From contig JAGXFY010000045.1 in the NCBI GenBank assembly GCA_024636985.1, positions 3,368 through 67,367 of the forward strand: 64,000 nt of DNA, written 5' to 3'. The first letter of the stretch is position 1. Every line of letters starts with the position of its first letter. Source of the stretch: Clostridiales bacterium (GTDB lineage Bacteria > Bacillota > Clostridia > Lachnospirales > Vallitaleaceae). The notes beneath the pieces are model-generated. The model was not told the origin of the DNA and did no database searches. It saw only the letters and a list, made by a program, of their open reading frames with translations. This document shows positions 3,935 to 34,049 of this stretch, one piece after another. The position numbers and the translations under genes were made by a program.

Positions 3935-6010
3935 ATGAATCAGAAGAAGCAAGTGGCTTTTAATCAGCGCATTCAGAAGTTTTTTACATGGCCCCTATTT
4001 TATATGATCGTTATAACGTTTATGACCATTGTTATGTTGATTATTGAAAGAAGTATGGGTATCTTTTTTGTTATATTATGGCTGATTGCTGGTGTGATTG
4101 GTTACTTCATGAATAGAACAACAAGAAAGCATTTGATGAGTGAGGTTATTAATTTTGCCCTTAGTTTTTCAGGTGTTCAAAAGGATTACCTTGATAAATT
4201 AGAGCTACCCAATGTTATATTAGACCCTGAAGCAAAAATTAGGTGGTGCAATGAAGCGTTTAACATATTGGTTGGTACCATGGATGATGTAGATGAAAGT
4301 AAAATCATTGAAATGAACATCAATGATATTATCCCCAGTTTGAATAGGGAAATGTTACCTTCTGAAATGGAAGGACAGATTGAAAAAATATTTGAAATCG
4401 GTGAGCGTCATTACAGGGTTATAGCCAAACATATGCGTATAGAGATGAATTCTAAAGAGCTAGATCTTGTAAACCTTACAGAAAATGAAGAGCAGTTGCT
4501 GTATACACTTTATTTTTTTGATATTTCTAAAGAACGCATGCTTGAGCAAAAAAACAATGATCAAAAAGCGGTTGCAGCCCTTATCTATATTGATAATTAT
4601 GAAGAGGTCTTAAACAGCATCGAAGATGTAAGACGTCCTCTGCTGGTAGCATTGATTGATCGAAATCTAAGCAAATTCGCCAACAAAATAGACGGTGTTC
4701 TGAAAAAATTTGAAAAAGATCAGTATATCCTTGTTTTTCAGCAAAAATATATGGAAGAGTTAAAGAATAATAAGTTTAGTATATTAGATGAAATACGCAG
4801 TATTAGTATAGGGAATGAACTTCCCGTAACTATGAGTATGGGCATCGGTATCAATGAATTTTCTTATTTACAGTCGGTGGAGTTTGGCAGAATGGCCTTA
4901 GATCTTGCCTTAGGTCGAGGTGGCGATCAAGCGGTTGTTAAGAAAAACGATAAGTTTTCTTTTTATGGTGGCAAAACCCGTGGCGTAGAAAAAAGCACCC
5001 GTGTGAAAGCAAGAATAAAGGCTTATGCCTTTAGAGAACTGATTGAAGAAAGCGATCGTGTCATCATAATGGGACACAAACGTCAAGATTTAGATTCACT
5101 GGGTGCGGCTGTGGGCATATATGCCTGTGCCAAGTTGCTGGATAAACCGGCGAATATTGTTATTAATGATGTAACTTCATCCGTCAAAACTCTTCATACG
5201 CAACTGGTTGAAAACGACCATTATCCTAAGAATCTGTTTGTAACCGGACAGGAAGCCATCAGCTATATAAAAGAAAAAACGTTATTGGTGGTTGTGGATG
5301 TTAACCGACCATCTTATACAGAACATATGGAGCTTTTAGACTATTTTAAAAACATTGTGGTCTTTGATCACCACAGAGTAAGTTCAGAACCCATTGAAAA
5401 TCCGGTTCTGAGTTATATCGAATCTTATGCTTCTTCCACATGCGAAATGGTGACAGAGATTCTAAGATATATATCCGACAAAGTGAAATTAGAACCGATT
5501 GAAGCAGACGCCTTGTTTGCAGGGATTACCGTCGATACCAAAAACTTTGTCATTAAGACGGGTGTTAAGACTTTTGAAGCAGCGGCTTTTCTTAAAAGAA
5601 GTGGTGCTGATGTTATTCGGGTTAGAGGTTTCTTTAAAAATGATATGGCCTCTTACAAAGCCAAAGCCACAGCAGTTAGGGACTGTCAGATTTATAGCGA
5701 TCATATGGCGATATCCGTTTGTCCTTCAGATGTTGAGAACCCATCTCTTGTGGCGGCACAAGCCGCAGATGAACTCCTGAATATTTCAGATATCAAAGCA
5801 TCATTTGTGTTATCGGACATTGAGGGGACCATTTATATCAGTGCAAGATCTTATGATAGTATCAACGTACAACTCATTATGGAAAAACTGGGTGGTGGTG
5901 GTCATCTTAGTGTGGCTGGTGCACAGATTCCGAATGAAACCATAGATGGTGTTATTATAAAATTAAAAGAAGCTTTGGACAATTATTCAGAGGAAGGTGA
6001 AACAACATGA
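3935..6010 (+). CDS. gdpP: c-di-AMP phosphodiesterase GdpP (YybT family)
   Basis: Two N-terminal TM helices, degenerate GGDQA, DHH motif (FDHHR), GGGGH DHHA1 motif; upstream of rplI; probable ATG 3935 after AGAGGT. Confidence 0.93.
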   Translation: MNQKKQVAFNQRIQKFFTWPLFYMIVITFMTIVMLIIERSMGIFFVILWLIAGVIGYFMNRTTRKHLMSEVINFALSFSGVQKDYLDKLELPNVILDPEAKIRWCNEAFNILVGTMDDVDESKIIEMNINDIIPSLNREMLPSEMEGQIEKIFEIGERHYRVIAKHMRIEMNSKELDLVNLTENEEQLLYTLYFFDISKERMLEQKNNDQKAVAALIYIDNYEEVLNSIEDVRRPLLVALIDRNLSKFANKIDGVLKKFEKDQYILVFQQKYMEELKNNKFSILDEIRSISIGNELPVTMSMGIGINEFSYLQSVEFGRMALDLALGRGGDQAVVKKNDKFSFYGGKTRGVEKSTRVKARIKAYAFRELIEESDRVIIMGHKRQDLDSLGAAVGIYACAKLLDKPANIVINDVTSSVKTLHTQLVENDHYPKNLFVTGQEAISYIKEKTLLVVVDVNRPSYTEHMELLDYFKNIVVFDHHRVSSEPIENPVLSYIESYASSTCEMVTEILRYISDKVKLEPIEADALFAGITVDTKNFVIKTGVKTFEAAAFLKRSGADVIRVRGFFKNDMASYKAKATAVRDCQIYSDHMAISVCPSDVENPSLVAAQAADELLNISDIKASFVLSDIEGTIYISARSYDSINVQLIMEKLGGGGHLSVAGAQIPNETIDGVIIKLKEALDNYSEEGETT

Positions 6011-6453
6011 AAATAGTATTACTAGAAGATGTAAAAAAAGTAGGTAAAAAAGGCGACATTGTAGAGGTCAGTGATGGCTATGGTAGAAACTATTTAATAG
6101 CTAGAAAATTAGGTAAAGAAGCGACCAATGCAGCTATTAATGATGTAAAGCTAAAAAAAGCTACAGAAGCAAGAAAAAAAGAAGATGAACTCAATGAAGC
6201 CAAAGAATTGGGTGTCAAAATAAAAGCATCCTCCATAACCCTAGCGATTAAAGCCGGTGAAGGTGGGAAAACATTTGGATCTGTATCGACAAAAGAGATT
6301 GCGAAAGCTATCTCCGATCAACTTGGCATAGAGGTTGACAAGAAAAAAATGGTCTTAGATGAACCCATTAAGTCCCTTGGTACCCATATTATTAAAATCA
6401 AGCTTCATCCAAAAGTGACAACAGAATTATCGGTTAAAGTTGAAGGAGAATAG
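6007..6453 (+). CDS. rplI: 50S ribosomal protein L9
   Basis: GKKGDIVEVSDGYGRNYLI motif. Confidence 0.97.
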   Translation: MKIVLLEDVKKVGKKGDIVEVSDGYGRNYLIARKLGKEATNAAINDVKLKKATEARKKEDELNEAKELGVKIKASSITLAIKAGEGGKTFGSVSTKEIAKAISDQLGIEVDKKKMVLDEPIKSLGTHIIKIKLHPKVTTELSVKVEGE

Positions 6454-26577: not shown

Positions 26578-28305
26578 ATGAGCCATGAGATTTTTTATGC
26601 AACATTTTTTTATACTTTATCAGCCTTTATATCTATCGCAATCAACGCAATTTTTTATTTAAAGGCAAGAAAAAGTAATCTATTATTCATGTTTTTAAAA
26701 GCGCAAGGACTGATGCTACTTTGGCTGTTTGCCAAAGTTATGACAAAGACGGTACCAAGCAATGAAGATGCTTGGATATGGGTAATCATCCAATACATCG
26801 GTGTTTGTTATTTTGGTACAGTATTTTTTGAATTTATATATTATTATAAGAAATTCAAAATGCCATCACATAATATCAGAATCCTGATATATGGCCTACC
26901 AACCATTAATTTTCTGATGGTGTTGACCAATAAATATCATTATTTATTTTTTACATCGGTCACCATATACCAGAACAGCTATGGATTCTGGTTCTATATT
27001 CATACTGCCTTCAGTTACATAATGGTAGCAATTTCTTATTATCTTTTGATTCGAATACTAATAGACAGAAAAAATGAGATCTCATGGATACAGAATATCC
27101 TTTTCAATCTAGGTCTGCTATTACCAATTGTAGCGAATATTATTCATGTTTTCCGCTTGATAGAGATTGGATTTGATATCACGCCAATCATGTTTAACAT
27201 TACTTTGGCAATTTTTGGATATGTTGCCTATCGCTATCGGTTTTTGGATATAAAAATGGTAACAAGATCCATGATCCTAGGAAATATTCATGAAGGTATT
27301 ATTATTATGGACAACGACCGAAGAATCGTTGAGAAAAACAACATTATTGAGGATATTACCCAAAGTCACGAAAAACTTAAGCTTATTGAAACGATCGACG
27401 ATTTCATTGAAATTGTACGTCCTAAAATAGAAGATTTTGAAATCTTGCATCAAGATATAAGCAGGTGTCTTGATACCAATGAAAACAGATTATCTACAGA
27501 ATTTAGAATGTTAGTTCATAATGAATGGCATTGTTATATTCTAAAGCTTGAGAAAATTATAGACCATTCTAAAGACACCATCGGCTATGTGTTTAGAATT
27601 ATTGATATCACCAAATACAAATCATTACTGATGAGCTTAGAAGCCAAAAACAAGGATCTACAAGTGGTCAATCGGCAACTTTCCGATTACCTTACCATAA
27701 CGAAGCAATTAGCAATTGCGAAAGAAAGAAATAGAATATCTAAAGAAGTCCATGATATTTTAGGTCACTCCGTTACCCTAGTCATTTCACTTCTGGAAAG
27801 TTGTAAGTATAACATTGGTAGAAATACAGATTTCCTCAAAGAGAAAACCACTCAAAGCAAAGCCATTATCAGAGGTGGTTTTCTAGAATTGAAAAAATCC
27901 ATGAACAGTCAATTAAAAGACGACATAGATATCAACAGTCTTATTGATGATTTACAGCGGCTCATCGATGATTATGAAAAATCCGGCGTAAACGTTGATT
28001 TTTACTACAAGCGAGCAGATTTTAAGTTGACAATGCAAGTCTATGATGGCTTGTATAGAATATGCCAAGAAGCGCTGACCAATGCATTAAAACATGGGAA
28101 TGCAAAAAACATAACCATACGTATCAAATATATAGCTAGAACGATGGACTTGGTCATCATTGATGATGGAACTGGATCGCCGAAGGTTATAAAAGGTAAT
28201 GGGTTAAAAGGCATGGAAACGAGGGTGGCGGATTTGTCTGGATTCTTATCTTTTGGGTCACCGGATGGTGAGGGCTTTAATATTCATGCAGTTTTGCCGA
28301 TATAA
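26578..28305 (+). CDS. 7TM sensor histidine kinase (HisKA_3 + HATPase)
   Basis: ERNRISKEVHDILGHS; EALTNALKHG, IDDGTG, GNGLKGM boxes. Confidence 0.92.
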   Translation: MSHEIFYATFFYTLSAFISIAINAIFYLKARKSNLLFMFLKAQGLMLLWLFAKVMTKTVPSNEDAWIWVIIQYIGVCYFGTVFFEFIYYYKKFKMPSHNIRILIYGLPTINFLMVLTNKYHYLFFTSVTIYQNSYGFWFYIHTAFSYIMVAISYYLLIRILIDRKNEISWIQNILFNLGLLLPIVANIIHVFRLIEIGFDITPIMFNITLAIFGYVAYRYRFLDIKMVTRSMILGNIHEGIIIMDNDRRIVEKNNIIEDITQSHEKLKLIETIDDFIEIVRPKIEDFEILHQDISRCLDTNENRLSTEFRMLVHNEWHCYILKLEKIIDHSKDTIGYVFRIIDITKYKSLLMSLEAKNKDLQVVNRQLSDYLTITKQLAIAKERNRISKEVHDILGHSVTLVISLLESCKYNIGRNTDFLKEKTTQSKAIIRGGFLELKKSMNSQLKDDIDINSLIDDLQRLIDDYEKSGVNVDFYYKRADFKLTMQVYDGLYRICQEALTNALKHGNAKNITIRIKYIARTMDLVIIDDGTGSPKVIKGNGLKGMETRVADLSGFLSFGSPDGEGFNIHAVLPI

Positions 28306-28393
28306 TATAGAGTTTTTGTGTTCGGACAACAGTGGCATATAAGAATATAAGGCATTAAGCCTAGTATAAGTAAATAGTACTAGTTTATTGCGG

Positions 28394-28422
28394 TTGTACT
28401 ACCATCTTATCTGTACTATAAT
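28394..28422 (+). promoter_or_regulatory. SigA-type promoter for the 28524-31266 module
   Basis: TTGTAC, 17 bp, TATAAT; overlapped by an imperfect inverted repeat CCATCTTATCT...AGATAGGCAAGATGG. Confidence 0.55.
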
Positions 28423-28523
28423 TTAGATAGGCAAGATGGGAAACTATTCCAGTACTGAAGCAAGGCAAGATTTTATTGTTTTTGCAGGAACTGGAATGAC
28501 GTTTATTGAGTTAGGGGAGAAAT

Positions 28524-29153
28524 ATGAATATAGAATCTATAGAAAGATATCTGCAAAAAGTTCAATCCGTTCTTGGCTGTAAGATTACATTAGATCAAGA
28601 GGATAAAATCAGTGAGATCCATATTGTATCTGATCTTAGGCGAAGTCCTAAGCAAATCCTTCGTGATATTGAAGCCATCATGATTTCCGAATTCGATATT
28701 AATATTGATTATAAAAAGGTATCCATCGCTCAGATACAGAGCGGTTCTCTTAAGTTGGACCAAGATCCTAGGCTCAAGCTTAAGTTGATAGAGTATAATA
28801 ACAACGGTTCCAATGTCACCGTAAAAGTTGCTTTGGAAAAACAAGGAGAAATCTACGAAAGTGAGTTATTAGGTGTACATACGGCCAACAATTTTAAAAG
28901 GTTGATTGGTGCAGTGGTACTTAAGGCGGTAGAGAAATATTGTGATGCTACCGATGTATTTGTTTTCGAAGATGTTAAGAAAGTACACTTGGCCAACATG
29001 GAGGTGATGGTCGTTGCCATGACCTCAGTCTTTAATGGTTCGGAAGAGATATTCACCGGAACGGCCAAGATTCAAAACGACAGCAATGAAGCCATTGCTA
29101 GAGCCACCCTAGATGCGGTGAACCGTCATATTTTGCATCTGGATTTAATTTAA
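28524..29153 (+). CDS. Conserved hypothetical cytoplasmic protein; C-terminal part resembles the LeuA allosteric domain
   Basis: 209 aa, SD GGGGAG; repeated alpha/beta units ending GTAKIQNDSNEAIARATLDAVNR. Confidence 0.7.
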   Translation: MNIESIERYLQKVQSVLGCKITLDQEDKISEIHIVSDLRRSPKQILRDIEAIMISEFDINIDYKKVSIAQIQSGSLKLDQDPRLKLKLIEYNNNGSNVTVKVALEKQGEIYESELLGVHTANNFKRLIGAVVLKAVEKYCDATDVFVFEDVKKVHLANMEVMVVAMTSVFNGSEEIFTGTAKIQNDSNEAIARATLDAVNRHILHLDLI

Positions 29154-29264
29154 TTAATAGCCGACTAAATCATACAGCAACAACTTTTTTATCTAGAGGA
29201 GCGGAATATAGCCTGCTATTCATAGTGGATATAGCAGAGATCATAAAATGGAGGCTATATTTCA

Positions 29265-29357
29265 ATGAAAAATATAAAAGTTAGAGCAATGGCTACTATC
29301 GTTAGTTTAGTATCATTCCTTCTTGCATCAGGTGCACTTTGGAGCGTGACTAAATAA
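29265..29357 (+). CDS. Unannotated 30-aa signal-peptide-like ORF (MKNIKVRAMATIVSLVSFLLASGALWSVTK)
   Basis: SD GGAGG at 29250-29254, ATG 29265, TAA 29355-29357; basic N-region, hydrophobic core, short Trp-containing tail; too short for the ORF track. Confidence 0.75.
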   Translation: MKNIKVRAMATIVSLVSFLLASGALWSVTK

Positions 29358-29419
29358 TACAGTACAGCAAATGATAAAGTAATGGGTTTAGTCGGCTTTT
29401 AATAGTTTTGGAGGCAATA

Positions 29420-30724
29420 ATGAATAAGCTAAAAGGCTTTATTTTAATAGTATCAGCAATTGCCCTTCTCATATACTTTTACATGTTTGGAAGGTATGAG
29501 ATCTCTTATGAGGGTCTTATTTTTTGGGGTCTTTTGGCGATTGTTTCAGAGACGTTTGTAATTGTATTACCTAATGGTGCTTCAACTTCTGTGGGTATGG
29601 CTGTTTACTTAGCCACACTTATAACAATTAATCCCCTTGTAGCCGTCATGGTTTCGGGAATTGCTTTCATATTACGCTTACCAACAGTAGATGGGAAGCG
29701 TAAACATGTAATTAATATGGGTCTAGGAATCACTGCTTATAATATTGCTAGTCATACTATCTTTATCGGAATGATGGGAGCAGCCTATAATTATTTGGTT
29801 CATGAAAATACATCGTTCAATATGATTGCAATTATTGCATTGGTGCTTCTAAGCTTGACGGAATTGGTTAGTATTATATTCATTTCTTTATATTTCCGCT
29901 TTGATGAATCTCCAAGAAATATTCAGTTGATAAAAAGCTTTCTAGGCGCTTTACCAAGTACTTTTGCTGTAGGTTCCTTAGGTATTTTGTTGGCTTTTGC
30001 AGAACTAAACTATGGTAAGGTGATTGTTGCCCTGTTCTTCATACCTCTACTCCTCGCAAGATATTCTTTTAAACTTTATTTTGATTCCCAGAAGATGAGC
30101 ATGGAAACCATTCAAGCCTTGAATGAAGCACTATTAATGCGAGATGCTTATACAAGTGGACACGCCACAAGGGTGGAGCGGTATTCTGCTATCTTGGCGA
30201 AAGCTTTAAAATATTTACCAAATGAAATGGAAAACCTTCAAAAAGCAGCCAAACTCCATGATATAGGCAAGATTGGCATACCCGATGAAATCCTAAACAA
30301 AAGCGGTAAGTTATCAGAGGATGAATATAGTAAAATAAAGGATCATTCTGCCATGGGTGCCCAGATTCTTAGTAATGTGGATGCACTTAAAAAGATTTCT
30401 GAAGCAGTAAAATACCATCACGAAAGACCGGACGGAAAAGGCTATCCTGAAGGCTTAATTGGCGATACTATTCCAAGGGATGCTGCCATCCTTTCTATCG
30501 CAGACACCTTTGACGCCATGACGACTGACCGACCTTATCGTAAAGCACTAACACTAGACGAAGCTGTTGAGGAATTGATTCTTTATCGTGGTACTCAGTT
30601 TAACGCCAGTCTTGTAGGTATTGTCTTAGAACATATAGAAGAATTCAGAGTAATCCTTGAGGAAAGCCAAGAGGATGTACGGGATATTTATTATAACGAA
30701 GCCTTAAGTGAGGTTAGTGTATGA
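29420..30724 (+). CDS. Membrane-bound HD-GYP phosphodiesterase (probable c-di-GMP)
   Basis: Multi-TM N-terminal half; RDAYTSGH, LHDIGK, HHERPDGKGYP, IADTFDAMTTDRPYR; ATG 29420 after GGAGG. Confidence 0.92.
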   Translation: MNKLKGFILIVSAIALLIYFYMFGRYEISYEGLIFWGLLAIVSETFVIVLPNGASTSVGMAVYLATLITINPLVAVMVSGIAFILRLPTVDGKRKHVINMGLGITAYNIASHTIFIGMMGAAYNYLVHENTSFNMIAIIALVLLSLTELVSIIFISLYFRFDESPRNIQLIKSFLGALPSTFAVGSLGILLAFAELNYGKVIVALFFIPLLLARYSFKLYFDSQKMSMETIQALNEALLMRDAYTSGHATRVERYSAILAKALKYLPNEMENLQKAAKLHDIGKIGIPDEILNKSGKLSEDEYSKIKDHSAMGAQILSNVDALKKISEAVKYHHERPDGKGYPEGLIGDTIPRDAAILSIADTFDAMTTDRPYRKALTLDEAVEELILYRGTQFNASLVGIVLEHIEEFRVILEESQEDVRDIYYNEALSEVSV

Positions 30725-31266
30725 TTATTGAAAGCATCGTTCTCTCAATCCTTATAGGGTGGATTCGAAAAGGCAAATTGAGATATTTGGGCTCAATTGA
30801 GATTAAAGGCATTTACCTGTTTTTTATAGGTGGCTTATTTCAAATATTACTTTTTGCTATGGCGGATGAACAAGGAAGCGGCATCGTACGTATGCTCTAT
30901 GACCATTTTTATGTTTTACATTTATTAACTTATGTCATTATCATGGTACCGATTTTTCTCAACTTGAAGTGGCGAGGTCTGAATCTAATGGGTCTTGGAA
31001 CATTACTTAATCTAATACCTATTGCAGCCAACCAAGGAAGAATGCCGGTAGCACTTCCGGCACCCTATACGCCCAACTTTGATCTGGGCCATGTGTTGCT
31101 TGAGTCCGGCACCAGATTCAAGATGTTATCGGATGTTATTTTTATAGGTCCCCCTTACCCGATGCCAAAGATTATGAGTGTCGGCGATTTACTGATTATG
31201 GCAGGTGTATTTTGGCTTATACAAAGTGCAATGATGCTAGAAAAACCAAATCAAAAATCAATGTAG
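30721..31266 (+). CDS. DUF5317-like membrane protein with LspA-like aspartate motifs
   Basis: GTLLNL...NQGRMPV, LSD138VI and SVGD156LLIMAG; ATGA-coupled to the HD-GYP gene. Confidence 0.75.
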   Translation: MIIESIVLSILIGWIRKGKLRYLGSIEIKGIYLFFIGGLFQILLFAMADEQGSGIVRMLYDHFYVLHLLTYVIIMVPIFLNLKWRGLNLMGLGTLLNLIPIAANQGRMPVALPAPYTPNFDLGHVLLESGTRFKMLSDVIFIGPPYPMPKIMSVGDLLIMAGVFWLIQSAMMLEKPNQKSM

Positions 31267-31300
31267 AATCAGGTAATGAATCCATATAGAATAAAATCTA

Positions 31301-31330
31301 AAGACCGACAGAAAAAAGTCAGGTCTTTTT
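31301..31330 (+). terminator. Terminator closing the peptide/HD-GYP module
   Basis: AGACC-GAC...GTC-A-GGTCT followed by TTTT. Confidence 0.6.
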
Positions 31331-31395
31331 AATTGTTTTGTAATAAAGTATGGTGCAAGATATGATAGAATAAGTTTTAAGTGAGGAGTGATGGC

Positions 31396-33129
31396 TTGTT
31401 AAAACTTTTAAGAGTAACAGCTTTGATTATTGTATTTCTTTTGGTTGGTTTTGGAACCAACTTTTTTATAATGAAAAATGTCGATGAGACATATTTAATA
31501 GCGCCCAATATGACCATGGAGCCGGTTGAGAACCTGATGACCGGCCTAAGTGAGGAAGAAACCCTAGTCATTATGGAAAATAAGATGATTGAGCTTGACC
31601 ATTATCCTAGATATGTGGATGATGTTGTTTATGTTCCAATCACATTTGTTATGGACTATTTTAATGATGGCTTCTACTGGGACAATGAGGAAAAAATACT
31701 AACCTATACCACATTAAAAGACGTTATTCGTATGGAAACAAACGCCTTAACCTACTTTGTGAACAAAGACCCCATCTCCCTTGAGATTCCTATCAGAGAG
31801 TTGGTGGCAGACATTCCGTTTATGCCATTGGAACTGGTTAAAAAATTTGCCCACCACGACTTTTATTACGATGGTACAATTGATACTTTGACCATTGAAG
31901 ATAAGAGCTTAGATGGGACTTATGGTATCGTGTCCCCAAGTACTCAAGAATATGGTGTTATCCGTTCTTGGAAAGATAAGAAGAGTACAGTGGTCAAAAA
32001 AGCAGCAAGAGGAGAAGAAGTAAAGATTTATGAGGATGACGGCATATGGCAACAAGTGCGAACCAAAGAAGGCTTAATTGGGTATATCCGTAAAGATGAA
32101 ATGGGAGAAGAGCGACATATTGCAGGAGAGCCTGTGGTCAGAGAAATCTATAATTATGATACAAGACCAACTTTTGACGGGGCCCTAAACCTAGCATGGC
32201 ATCAGGTGACCAATTCAACAGCCAACCGCTACTTAGAGGATGTGCTTGAAGGTGTACATGGTCTGAATGTCATATCACCGACCTGGCTTCATATAAAAGA
32301 CTCAGAAGGTAATATAACCAATATTGCTGACCTGGATTATGTGAATAAAGCCCATGCCAGGGGCATACAAGTTTGGGCTTTATTTTCAAATCAGTTTGAT
32401 CGTAAGTTGACCCATGAGGTATTAAGCAGCACAACTAAAAGAGAAAAATTGATTAGGGAGTTACTGGCTTTATCCGCTCTTTATAACCTTGATGGTATCA
32501 ATGTAGACTTTGAAAATGTCGGACAGGAAGATGGAATCTACTTTATTCAGTTTATCAAAGAATTAACCCCTTATCTTAAAAACCAAGGCTTGGTGGTCTC
32601 GGTGGATATGTATGTACCTTCACAATGGACGGCTCACTATGGACGAAAAGAAATTGGTGAGATTGTAGATTATGTTATGATTATGGCTTATGATGAGCAT
32701 TGGTCGACTTCACCGGATAGTGGTTCAGTTGCCAGTATTGGATTTGTAGAAAAGGGTATTATTGATACACTTAAAGAAGTACCAAAAGAGAAGACGGTAC
32801 TTGGACTGCCTTACTATACGAGACGGTGGACAGAAGAAGTTGTCGACGGCGAGATAAAAGTATCATCAAGGGCTTATGGTATGGACACAGCTTATAAAAT
32901 CATGACTGAAGAAGGTGTGACATTCAGATGGTTAGATGACATTAAGCAATACTATGGAGAATATGAAAAAGATGGTAAGACCTATAAAATGTGGTTGGAA
33001 GAAGAACAATCCATTGAAGAAAAAGTAAAGTTGCTTTCCAAGCATCAATTAGTGGGTGTGGCCGGATGGAAGATTGGCTTAGAAAAAGAGGCCATTTGGG
33101 ATGTTCTAAGAAAACACCTTGTACCATAA
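31396..33129 (+). CDS. GH18 glycosyl hydrolase with N-terminal membrane anchor and SH3b-like domain (cell-wall/chitin hydrolase type)
   Basis: LDGINVDFE catalytic motif; IMAYDEHW; WQQVRTKEGLIGYI SH3-like segment; TTG at 31396 fits the SD better than GTG at 31381. Confidence 0.85.
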   Translation: MLKLLRVTALIIVFLLVGFGTNFFIMKNVDETYLIAPNMTMEPVENLMTGLSEEETLVIMENKMIELDHYPRYVDDVVYVPITFVMDYFNDGFYWDNEEKILTYTTLKDVIRMETNALTYFVNKDPISLEIPIRELVADIPFMPLELVKKFAHHDFYYDGTIDTLTIEDKSLDGTYGIVSPSTQEYGVIRSWKDKKSTVVKKAARGEEVKIYEDDGIWQQVRTKEGLIGYIRKDEMGEERHIAGEPVVREIYNYDTRPTFDGALNLAWHQVTNSTANRYLEDVLEGVHGLNVISPTWLHIKDSEGNITNIADLDYVNKAHARGIQVWALFSNQFDRKLTHEVLSSTTKREKLIRELLALSALYNLDGINVDFENVGQEDGIYFIQFIKELTPYLKNQGLVVSVDMYVPSQWTAHYGRKEIGEIVDYVMIMAYDEHWSTSPDSGSVASIGFVEKGIIDTLKEVPKEKTVLGLPYYTRRWTEEVVDGEIKVSSRAYGMDTAYKIMTEEGVTFRWLDDIKQYYGEYEKDGKTYKMWLEEEQSIEEKVKLLSKHQLVGVAGWKIGLEKEAIWDVLRKHLVP

Positions 33130-33209: not shown

Positions 33210-34049
33210 ATGAAACAATTAAGGGCTATTATGGAGTGTATACTACTTCTGGGTATTGTATATCTCATATATGAAATCATGTATTTTGCATACAACTATA
33301 TTATTTTTTACGGCTTACAACAAGAGTGGGTATGGATTCCCATTGAAGCTTATGCACATCTAGGAGACATAGAAAGTATGACCTTAGAATATGTAAGCGA
33401 CCATCCTCTGGAATATACCCTAATAAGTTGGTTGATGGTTGCATGTTTTTTTCTAAGCGTCGTCATTTTTTCAAAACAAAAATTAAGTCAAACATTTGCT
33501 ATAAGACATATGAGCATAAAAAACAGCTTAACAAGTATGGTAACAGGCATTGGCTTGGTTTTTTTGATGAACGGCTTGATTAGATTTATTAGCGCAGCGA
33601 CAGATATTGAATTTTCATATTTAAGTTCTTCAACATTCCGAGTTTATAATTTGTGGTTTCTCATGGTGGTGGTTGGTATATTAACACCAATTTTTGAAGA
33701 GCTATTCTTTAGAGGCGTGGTACTGAGCAGATTGTCACATGGATTTGGTCCATTGGTTAGCATCTTATTGTCAAGTGTGATGTTCTCCCTTAGTCATATG
33801 AATCCGGTTCAGAGCATCTATGTTTTCCCGGTGGGGCTACTAGCGGCCTACTTGGTTTATAAAACCGGTTCCATTTTTTCGGCGATTTGGTTACATACGC
33901 TATACAATATTTTGAATATTTATCTTGCTAAGATTGATTTTTTTCAGTACAATAGTGTACAGCTTTTAGTCTTAATGCTTATAGGAATATGTCTCCTTGG
34001 AATTGGACTTTATCAATCAGAAGCGCAAAATGCTATAGAAAATCCTTAA
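33210..34049 (+). CDS. CPBP (CAAX/Abi) intramembrane metalloprotease
   Basis: EELFFRG, FSLSH and HTLYN motifs. Confidence 0.9.
   Translation: MKQLRAIMECILLLGIVYLIYEIMYFAYNYIIFYGLQQEWVWIPIEAYAHLGDIESMTLEYVSDHPLEYTLISWLMVACFFLSVVIFSKQKLSQTFAIRHMSIKNSLTSMVTGIGLVFLMNGLIRFISAATDIEFSYLSSSTFRVYNLWFLMVVVGILTPIFEELFFRGVVLSRLSHGFGPLVSILLSSVMFSLSHMNPVQSIYVFPVGLLAAYLVYKTGSIFSAIWLHTLYNILNIYLAKIDFFQYNSVQLLVLMLIGICLLGIGLYQSEAQNAIENP

Follow-up and report, generated by a model that had tools for sequence, protein, structure and literature searches.

Does the last gene of a four-gene operon in a Clostridiales bacterium encode an intramembrane aspartyl peptidase, and if so, what would that enzyme cut? The operon lies within a 64,000-nucleotide stretch of contig JAGXFY010000045.1 (assembly GCA_024636985.1, positions 3,368 to 67,367, forward strand), which was analysed as a whole and is called the window below. 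Its genes encode, in order, a soluble protein of 209 amino acids (aa), a micropeptide, a MASE9-type HD-GYP phosphodiesterase acting on cyclic di-GMP (c-di-GMP), and a protein of the family DUF5317. A prediction made from the letters alone had taken the DUF5317 protein for a remote homologue of signal peptidase II (LspA, peptidase family A8), adapted to a Cys-less, lipobox-like peptide encoded beside it. The answer reached here is divided. DUF5317 is a separate five-helix membrane protein family, not a member of LspA/A8; however, its C-terminal part carries a local likeness to the catalytic module of LspA. From the family membership, conservation, topology, local LspA-like layout, operon and genome-level co-occurrence described below, we infer, with a probability of roughly 0.4, that DUF5317 is an outward-facing intramembrane peptidase that uses an Asp dyad and acts on the micropeptide, a proposal whose parts (catalysis, the peptide as substrate, the place of the cut and its effect on the phosphodiesterase) are all conditional.

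DUF5317: family, conservation and topology

The product of the last open reading frame (ORF) of the operon is a genuine member of DUF5317. It matches the Pfam model PF17248 with 109.6 bits (cut-off 25; E 1.8e-31) over residues 26-168, and the same model is matched by all 149 relatives with which it was aligned. The nearest relatives, a protein of Petrocella sp. among them, carry no annotation beyond hypothetical or "DUF5317 domain-containing"; a search of NCBIfam with the window protein gave zero model matches, and a search of a collection of 8.4 million papers for DUF5317 or PF17248 found no paper. The family comprises 1306 clusters at 50 % identity in an exhaustive HMMER search (E<=0.001) and is present in about one third of the sampled genomes of the phylum as well as in Thermus and Thermotoga. 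A 308-aa library representative (P0153) that looked like a DUF5317 fusion was discarded as a chimera, its C-terminal part being a common assembly-contaminant sequence.

Conservation was read from an alignment of 149 full-length representatives drawn from the 1306 clusters, most of them 28-59 % identical to the window protein. G93, N97, N104, P109, S153, G155 and D156 are invariant in all 149 members and D138 is kept in 148; conservation is also strong at M108 (145 members), N81 (141), H124 (129) and position 4, which is acidic in 117. This pattern is far above chance expectation, and the identical residues are invariant in members taken from differing gene contexts. The strings from which the original prediction had started, G93-T-L-L-N97-L, G106-R-M-P-V110, L136-S-D138-V-I-F and M152-S-V-G-D156-L-L-I-M-A-G162, all stand at the residues quoted; the translated ORF bears out the spacing of 18 residues between D138 and D156 (codon 31186-31188), and the proposed motif order, along with the conservation of N97, D138 and D156 that was named as a check, holds in the alignment (149/149, 148/149 and 149/149, respectively). 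In the window clade, made up of the window protein and the 11 relatives closest to it, the loop between the M-P-V strand and H124 is 11 residues shorter than in the three most distant members of the same alignment (comparison of residues 111-123).

The AlphaFold2 model of the protein (mean pLDDT 96.2, pTM 0.89) contains helices at residues 2-15, 31-47, 63-80, 85-103 and 154-171, five in number and long enough to be transmembrane (TM), in agreement with the earlier description of a small multi-TM protein. The loop 104-153 between the last two helices holds short strands at 108-110, 124-126, 138/140-142 and 150-152, modelled as a four-strand sheet, and D156 is the third residue of helix 154-171. 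Stretches rich in Lys and Arg follow helix 1 and helix 3 and extend throughout the C-terminal tail, so that, by the positive-inside rule, the N-terminus and loop 104-153 are placed outside and the C-terminus inside. Covariation, calculated as mutual information with average product correction on 200 non-redundant DUF5317 sequences and independent of the AlphaFold2 model, couples residues 5-160, 9-164, 13-171 and 16-168, which sets helix 1 parallel to helix 5. The positive-inside rule and the parallel arrangement of these two helices together put the Asp site on the outer face. Three further pairs (140-152, 141-151 and 143-149) determine how the hairpin between the two Asp residues is registered; D138 then stands opposite residue 154, two residues before D156, and proximity of D138 and D156 is thus plausible from the sequence. 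E4 covaries with K150. By this topology, a polar cluster lies at the face of the outer leaflet, made up of the invariant or near-invariant N97, N104, D138, S153 and D156 together with the usually conserved E4 and H124.

Likeness to the LspA catalytic module and its limits

When the DUF5317 profile was compared by hhalign with a profile of 32 LspA sequences, the two aligned over 47 columns with a score of 27.1 (P 0.0016, probability 16 %), D138 falling on the Asp of the LspA V-x-D motif and D156 on that of FNxAD. In these columns T-x-L-x-f-L-a-D138-I-I...S-I-G-D156-x-x-I-x-x-G-v-F of DUF5317 stands over i-r-x-G-y-V-v-D-F...F-N-v-A-D-x-x-I-v-v-G-v of LspA. A second profile comparison, with a 16-sequence LspA alignment, gave P 0.0037 and covered the last helix only. 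Among the controls, the reversed LspA profile scored 15.1 and 60 block-permuted LspA profiles had a mean of 14.5 (sd 2.6, maximum 23.6); membrane families built in the same way scored 14.0 (A24), 11.6 (PlsY), 14.5 (rhomboid) and 19.4 (MASE9) against DUF5317, and LspA scored 12-18 against these same four; every one of these controls lies below 27.1. In a search of the 149 members against 24,736 Pfam models, Peptidase_A8 came fifth among the sub-threshold families by recurrence (three members, best E 0.036), and the LspA hidden Markov model (HMM) aligns one or another member at each motif (GAlGN with GtllN, VvD with LaD, and FNvAD with FSiGD). The predicted structures share a corresponding layout. 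The model of this genome's LspA has a helix at 84-110, a strand at 113-119 with D115, a bridge at 127 and a helix at 129-147 of which D131 is the third residue; common to both models are a helix with G-x3-N, a strand with the first Asp, a hairpin, a short strand and a last helix with Asp in third place. Judged from profiles and models, then, the local resemblance of DUF5317 to LspA is real and specific to the catalytic module, and it may have come about by divergence or by convergence.

The best non-self match of the DUF5317 HMM in the genome (E 0.0018) is a 193-aa A24 (prepilin-type) peptidase family protein (C48:71015-71593, minus strand), and the match covers the N-terminal 100 residues. 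Kinship with the GxGD proteases (A24) was considered and rejected, because the profile-profile comparison with 30 A24 proteins was null (14.0, P 0.31). Canonical LspA occurs twice in the genome, as paralogs of 165 aa (C69:1247-1744) and 149 aa (C83:40876-41322), both with complete A8 motifs.

Several findings weigh against a peptidase of the LspA type. The HH probability for the pair is just 9-16 %, below HH-suite significance, and when single sequences were compared with the DUF5317 profile LspA1 ranked 33rd of the 314 TM proteins of the genome, while LspA2 lay outside that set; the rank of LspA1 indicates that the LspA signal is present at the profile level only. The window protein has no match to PF01252 (Peptidase_A8) at E<=1, and neither the protein nor the family profile matches a PDB sequence at E<=10. 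A Foldseek search of the DUF5317 model against 350,542 PDB chains returned 19 matches, all at E>4 and TM-scores <=0.30, with LspA absent at E<=10, and a search of a viral structure library returned nothing; as a positive control, the model of this genome's LspA (pLDDT 89.2) matched 6RYP, 6RYO and 5DIR with E 4e-10 to 2e-8 and TM-scores of 0.74-0.85. As modelled, the DUF5317 fold has no representative in the PDB. Sixteen LspA sequences share the invariant residues D16, Q17, K20, N47, G49, G99, G102, N103, D106, R107, V113, D115, N128, A130 and D131. From the motif G-x-x-G-N-x-x-D-R, DUF5317 has only the invariant G93-x3-N97, the D-R positions being hydrophobic; the D-Q-x-x-K motif of the first LspA helix (TM1) is without counterpart; and N-x-G-A-A-F, which LspA carries in the TM1-TM2 loop, is not found at the matching position, the invariant N104-x-G106 of DUF5317 sitting after TM4. 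The chain of DUF5317 starts outside and forms five TM helices, whereas that of LspA starts inside and forms four; in DUF5317 an insertion of 30-40 residues (N104 to T131), placed after the G-x3-N helix and before the first Asp, adds two strands. The Asp dyad of A8, with one Asp on a strand and the other near the N-terminus of the last helix, is reproduced by DUF5317 only as far as sequence and secondary structure go.

The remote homology originally proposed was accordingly not borne out: helix number and N-terminal orientation differ, several A8 motifs are lacking, every sequence method stayed below significance, and the structure search named as a check found LspA for the control model and not for DUF5317, so that the modelled fold fails to superimpose on LspA, an outcome which the original prediction had itself listed as refuting. 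What stands of the LspA-like reading is the order and spacing of the motifs, the profile similarity of the catalytic module and the local layout, but not the fold or the membership in A8. Thus, homology of DUF5317 to LspA is unproven, and that it works like LspA is a fairly attractive hypothesis.

The micropeptide, the HD-GYP gene and their distribution

The start codon of the DUF5317 gene overlaps the stop codon of the HD-GYP gene (ATGA). A full-length ortholog of the HD-GYP protein in another genome (locus L082) matches MASE9, a sensor domain that was defined by Galperin and Chou (bioRxiv 10.1101/2021.11.05.467447) and is predicted to bind its ligand inside the membrane; that paper concerns the sensor domain only and makes no mention of DUF5317, the micropeptide or the 209-aa protein. 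The surroundings of DUF5317 were surveyed in 60 loci, each from a different genome of the phylum. An HD-GYP gene of this type adjoins DUF5317 in 53 of them, and 51 of these 53 genes have directly 5' a micro-ORF that is 23-34 codons long and carries a strong Shine-Dalgarno sequence. The window has the same arrangement: a micro-ORF within this size range, then a multi-TM HD-GYP gene, then the DUF5317 gene adjoining it. Eight of 14 relatives of the 209-aa protein weakly match the allosteric (dimerisation) domain of LeuA (best E 1.4e-4), which suggests, at the level of sequence, a small-molecule-binding regulatory fold. The coordinates of the operon and of the conserved DUF5317 motifs are given in Table 1.

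Table 1. Features of the DUF5317 operon and its surroundings (positions are those of the window)
Feature	Position	Strand	Evidence or remark
209-aa soluble protein, first gene of the cassette	28524..29153	+	without Pfam family; present in 42/60 loci
Unannotated 30-aa micropeptide gene, MKNIKVRAMATIVSLVSFLLASGALWSVTK	29265..29357	+	GGAGG Shine-Dalgarno; signal-peptide-like; candidate substrate or partner
Multi-TM (MASE9-type) HD-GYP c-di-GMP phosphodiesterase, 438 aa	29408..30724	+	HD_5, E 2.8e-40
DUF5317 protein, 181 aa	30721..31266	+	last operon gene; ORF list, PF17248, AlphaFold2 model, covariation
N97 codon, G93-x3-N97 motif of TM4	31009..31011	+	149/149; by-type counterpart of LspA TM3 G-x-x-G-N
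N104-x-G106-x-M108-P109-V110 motif, TM4 exit	31030..31050	+	N104 and P109 149/149; without positional LspA counterpart
D138 codon, start of beta-strand 138-142	31132..31134	+	148/149; paired by hhalign with LspA strand Asp (V-x-D)
S153-V-G155-D156	31177..31188	+	S, G and D each 149/149; aligned with LspA N-x-A-D
Terminator-like hairpin followed by U run	31300..31328	+	34 nt past DUF5317 stop; RNA folding

The micropeptides have a basic n-region and a short h-region ending in a lipobox pattern with Gly in place of Cys, and the consensus of the family is ...LVLAGGAxF(K/R)W-stop. Numbered from the candidate cleavage site, 52 peptides have L at -3 in 42, A at -2 in 48, G at -1 in 42 and A at +2 in 39; farther along the tail, +4 is F, Y or W in 34, +5 is K or R in 26, and +6 is W in 33, the stop codon following immediately in 25. 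At +1 the residue is G (45), A (4) or S (3) and never C, so that the diacylglyceryl-Cys of the A8 lipobox is lacking. The window peptide reads L-A-S-G where most relatives read L-A-G-G, and peptides of the window clade have A-S-G-A in place of A-G-G-A. A Cys-less lipobox-like peptide had been foreseen by the original prediction; it is real and conserved, with L-A-G-G for L-A-G-C, but it is not adjacent to the DUF5317 gene, from which it lies 1.36 kb upstream. The C-terminal tail of the peptide would be on the same side of the membrane as the Asp pair of DUF5317.

Linkage extends to the genome level. Four genomes in which DUF5317 stands alone or by a soluble HD protein all carry the cassette of 209-aa protein, peptide and HD-GYP gene elsewhere (4/4), which raises co-occurrence within genomes to 57/60. 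Two loci, L069:1809-2465 and L074:5697-6365, have DUF5317 beside a soluble HD protein of about 220 aa near secD, tgt and queA, with the peptide/HD-GYP cassette elsewhere. No DUF5317 match is found in 21 of 89 MASE9-positive genomes. Among the DUF5317-less genomes inspected, four from three families have peptides that are shorter or less hydrophobic and have lost L-A-G while keeping a tail of the G-x-x-K-W type (e.g., MKKMVNVLTRLMGVAGVWKW), and one that is incomplete has a normal peptide. This distribution fits a functional tie of DUF5317 to the anchor or lipobox part of the peptide, on few independent events. The 20-aa, poorly hydrophobic micropeptides MKWLFNFMSLFLGRGGNYKW and MKKMVNVLTRLMGVAGVWKW are encoded at L123:1781-1843 and L127:1795-1857, respectively (genomes G037 and G160), in genomes where DUF5317 is not found; secA directly follows the cassette at L127, and at L123 the contig ends just past the HD-GYP gene.

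An apparent Rosetta-stone fusion at L082, a single frame of 604 aa joining MASE9-HD-GYP to DUF5317 (L082:3742-5553), was rejected. Compared with the sister genome (L115:2727-4543), it has a single-base difference in the A-run that immediately precedes the normal stop, the frame still has the Shine-Dalgarno sequence and ATG of DUF5317 itself, and the fusion would join an outside-facing N-terminus straight to a cytoplasmic domain; it is probably a sequencing or assembly frameshift. Another arrangement is seen at L080:4991-5527, from the same class, where the start of cdaA (5523-6368; a diadenylate cyclase with DAC and CdaA_N domains) lies within a divergent DUF5317 gene and there is no micropeptide. 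DUF5317 may also be a partner of c-di-AMP synthesis.

Past the operon, the terminator-like hairpin folds at -11 kcal/mol (z -3.3); a simple consensus terminator scan missed it, owing to a bulge, and an Rfam scan of 28200-31500 gave zero matches. The upstream neighbour of the operon (26578-28305) encodes a 7TM-type histidine kinase (HisKA_7TM, HisKA_3, HATPase_c). Downstream are a GH18 protein with SH3 and Cu_amine_oxidN1 domains (31381-33129) and a CPBP/Rce1-like intramembrane protease (33210-34049).

What DUF5317 may do, and how it compares with known systems

In its last ~50 residues DUF5317 resembles the catalytic module of LspA, with one Asp on a short strand, a tight hairpin and the other Asp on the final TM helix within [N/S]-x-[A/G]-D-x5-G. 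Were DUF5317 a peptidase, the substrate would be the co-transcribed micropeptide of 25-30 residues, mimicking a lipoprotein signal peptide without its Cys, with the cut placed as L-A-G↓G-A-x-F-(K/R)-W-stop. Such a cut would free a tail of about six residues from a helix retained in the membrane, and cleavage would set the activity of the MASE9-type HD-GYP phosphodiesterase encoded between the micropeptide and DUF5317 genes. This proposal can be carried further, to DUF5317 as the founder of a new family of intramembrane aspartyl peptidases beside A8, A22 and A24 that cuts L-A-G↓G, with the hexapeptide G-A-x-F-(K/R)-W or the retained helix serving as the MASE9 ligand; so specified, it is a speculative extension that we consider unlikely. 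To the limits of the likeness to LspA described above must be added what is seen of gene context. Three divergent DUF5317 members (one by cdaA, one by agrB and one alone) keep the invariant residues in genomes in which no MASE9 cassette is detected, and the micropeptide directly precedes the HD-GYP gene even where the order is DUF5317-peptide-HD-GYP. The micropeptide may be a subunit of the MASE9 domain, and if it is cleaved, type I signal peptidase could make the cut, at G-G-A↓x.

The most serious competitor, possible though somewhat doubtful, is one in which DUF5317 would be a non-catalytic membrane co-sensor or accessory subunit assembled with the MASE9 domain and an uncleaved micropeptide. 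Its Asn/Asp/Ser cluster would then bind a cation, a lipid head group or the peptide tail and signal to the nucleotide enzyme, the partner in other lineages being a soluble HD protein or CdaA. Such a role would suit the translational coupling and adjacency to the HD-GYP gene, the fact that the micropeptide stays with that gene and not with DUF5317 when the order changes, and the occurrence of DUF5317 beside GGDEF-HD-GYP and HD-GYP-HATPase proteins in addition to the soluble HD protein and CdaA. It would suit equally the intramembrane ligand binding predicted by the authors of MASE9 (10.1101/2021.11.05.467447) and a fold that Foldseek matches to no known enzyme. However, two acidic and three polar residues kept almost without exception among clusters of ~30 % identity are a pattern more usual for catalysis or ion coordination than for a surface that contacts proteins or senses ligands, and both the likeness to the LspA module and the lipobox-like peptide would need to be coincidence. 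Moreover, the sole gene fusion found, which would have been direct evidence of a complex, is probably a homopolymer frameshift artefact.

Coincidence would also have to account for the two likenesses if DUF5317 had an unrelated activity, as a small transporter or channel or as an enzyme of the outer leaflet acting on lipid-linked substrates. Sub-threshold Pfam matches of its members do include families of the Wzy_C, YfhO and EpsG type, which handle such substrates, the best non-self match of its HMM in the genome is an A24 peptidase, over the N-terminal half, weak matches to assorted membrane enzymes occur, and members that lack the peptide retain the site. Yet the A24 match vanishes in the profile-profile comparison, where LspA stands out, and co-occurrence with the micropeptide/HD-GYP cassette in 57 of 60 genomes is unexpected for a housekeeping lipid enzyme or transporter, which leaves this explanation quite improbable. 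At the other extreme, and overlapping with the peptidase proposal, DUF5317 might be a true but highly diverged LspA homologue, a relative of A8 at clan level whose N-terminal half was remodelled and whose beta-cradle strands moved into the TM4-TM5 loop. By type, the motifs correspond (G-x3-N with G-x-x-G-N, hydrophobic-x-D with V-x-D, and S-x-G-D with N-x-A-D, each second Asp followed by G at +6), the N-x-G of the LspA cradle loop occurs in DUF5317 too, hhalign has both Asp residues in register while individual members align all three motifs, and the C-terminal halves share their orientation in the membrane. This descent is nevertheless very unlikely: no method gave a significant match, Foldseek was null where the control readily found LspA, the number of helices differs, and a permutation of the N-x-G/strand element, an evolutionarily rare event, would be needed. 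In addition, convergence on an Asp at the N-terminus of a helix, after small residues, is plausible.

The module matters under more than one of these explanations. A catalytic Asp pair would make DUF5317 a new class of intramembrane protease, and the MASE9-type HD-GYP phosphodiesterases would gain from it their first proposed input signal; if the founder-family version is true, a peptide-to-c-di-GMP circuit would be widespread in Bacillota, Thermus and Thermotoga. Even if DUF5317 is non-catalytic, the four-gene module appears to be undescribed, and its micropeptide gene is unlikely to be found by routine gene calling.

Among known systems, LspA (MEROPS A8, PF01252; structures 5DIR, 6RYO and 6RYP) is like DUF5317 in being a small polytopic protein with two invariant Asp residues at the face of the outer leaflet, one on a strand and one as the third residue of the last TM helix, 16-19 residues apart, with G-x3-N in the preceding helix and a four-strand sheet on the outer surface. 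An n-region, a short h-region and L-A-G at -3 to -1 are likewise seen in the candidate substrate. Unlike LspA, DUF5317 draws all four strands from one loop and has S-x-G-D for N-x-A-D, and its candidate substrate has Gly or Ser where LspA requires diacylglyceryl-Cys. The upstream gene in the window is a full-length ortholog of proteins with MASE9 and HD_5 domains, in this like the MASE9-HD-GYP enzymes, such as TM1467 of Thermotoga maritima and HdgA of Streptomyces venezuelae; searches for DUF5317 and for MASE9 were positive in the same two control genomes, those of Thermus thermophilus and Thermotoga maritima. The gene set as a whole recalls agr, in which one operon encodes a small peptide precursor (AgrD), a polytopic processor (AgrB) and a membrane receptor enzyme (AgrC), the processing role of DUF5317 being a possible one. 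However, AgrB is unrelated in sequence and belongs to the cysteine peptidases, the output of agr is a histidine kinase and not c-di-GMP hydrolysis, and the tail of the micropeptide is conserved across phyla instead of being split into specificity groups. Finally, like MgrB and SafA with PhoQ, and like CydX and KdpF, the micropeptide is a single-helix peptide of ~25-30 residues encoded directly 5' of its presumed membrane partner; unlike the module described here, those systems have neither a third polytopic protein with an enzyme-like Asp pair nor lipobox-like peptides.

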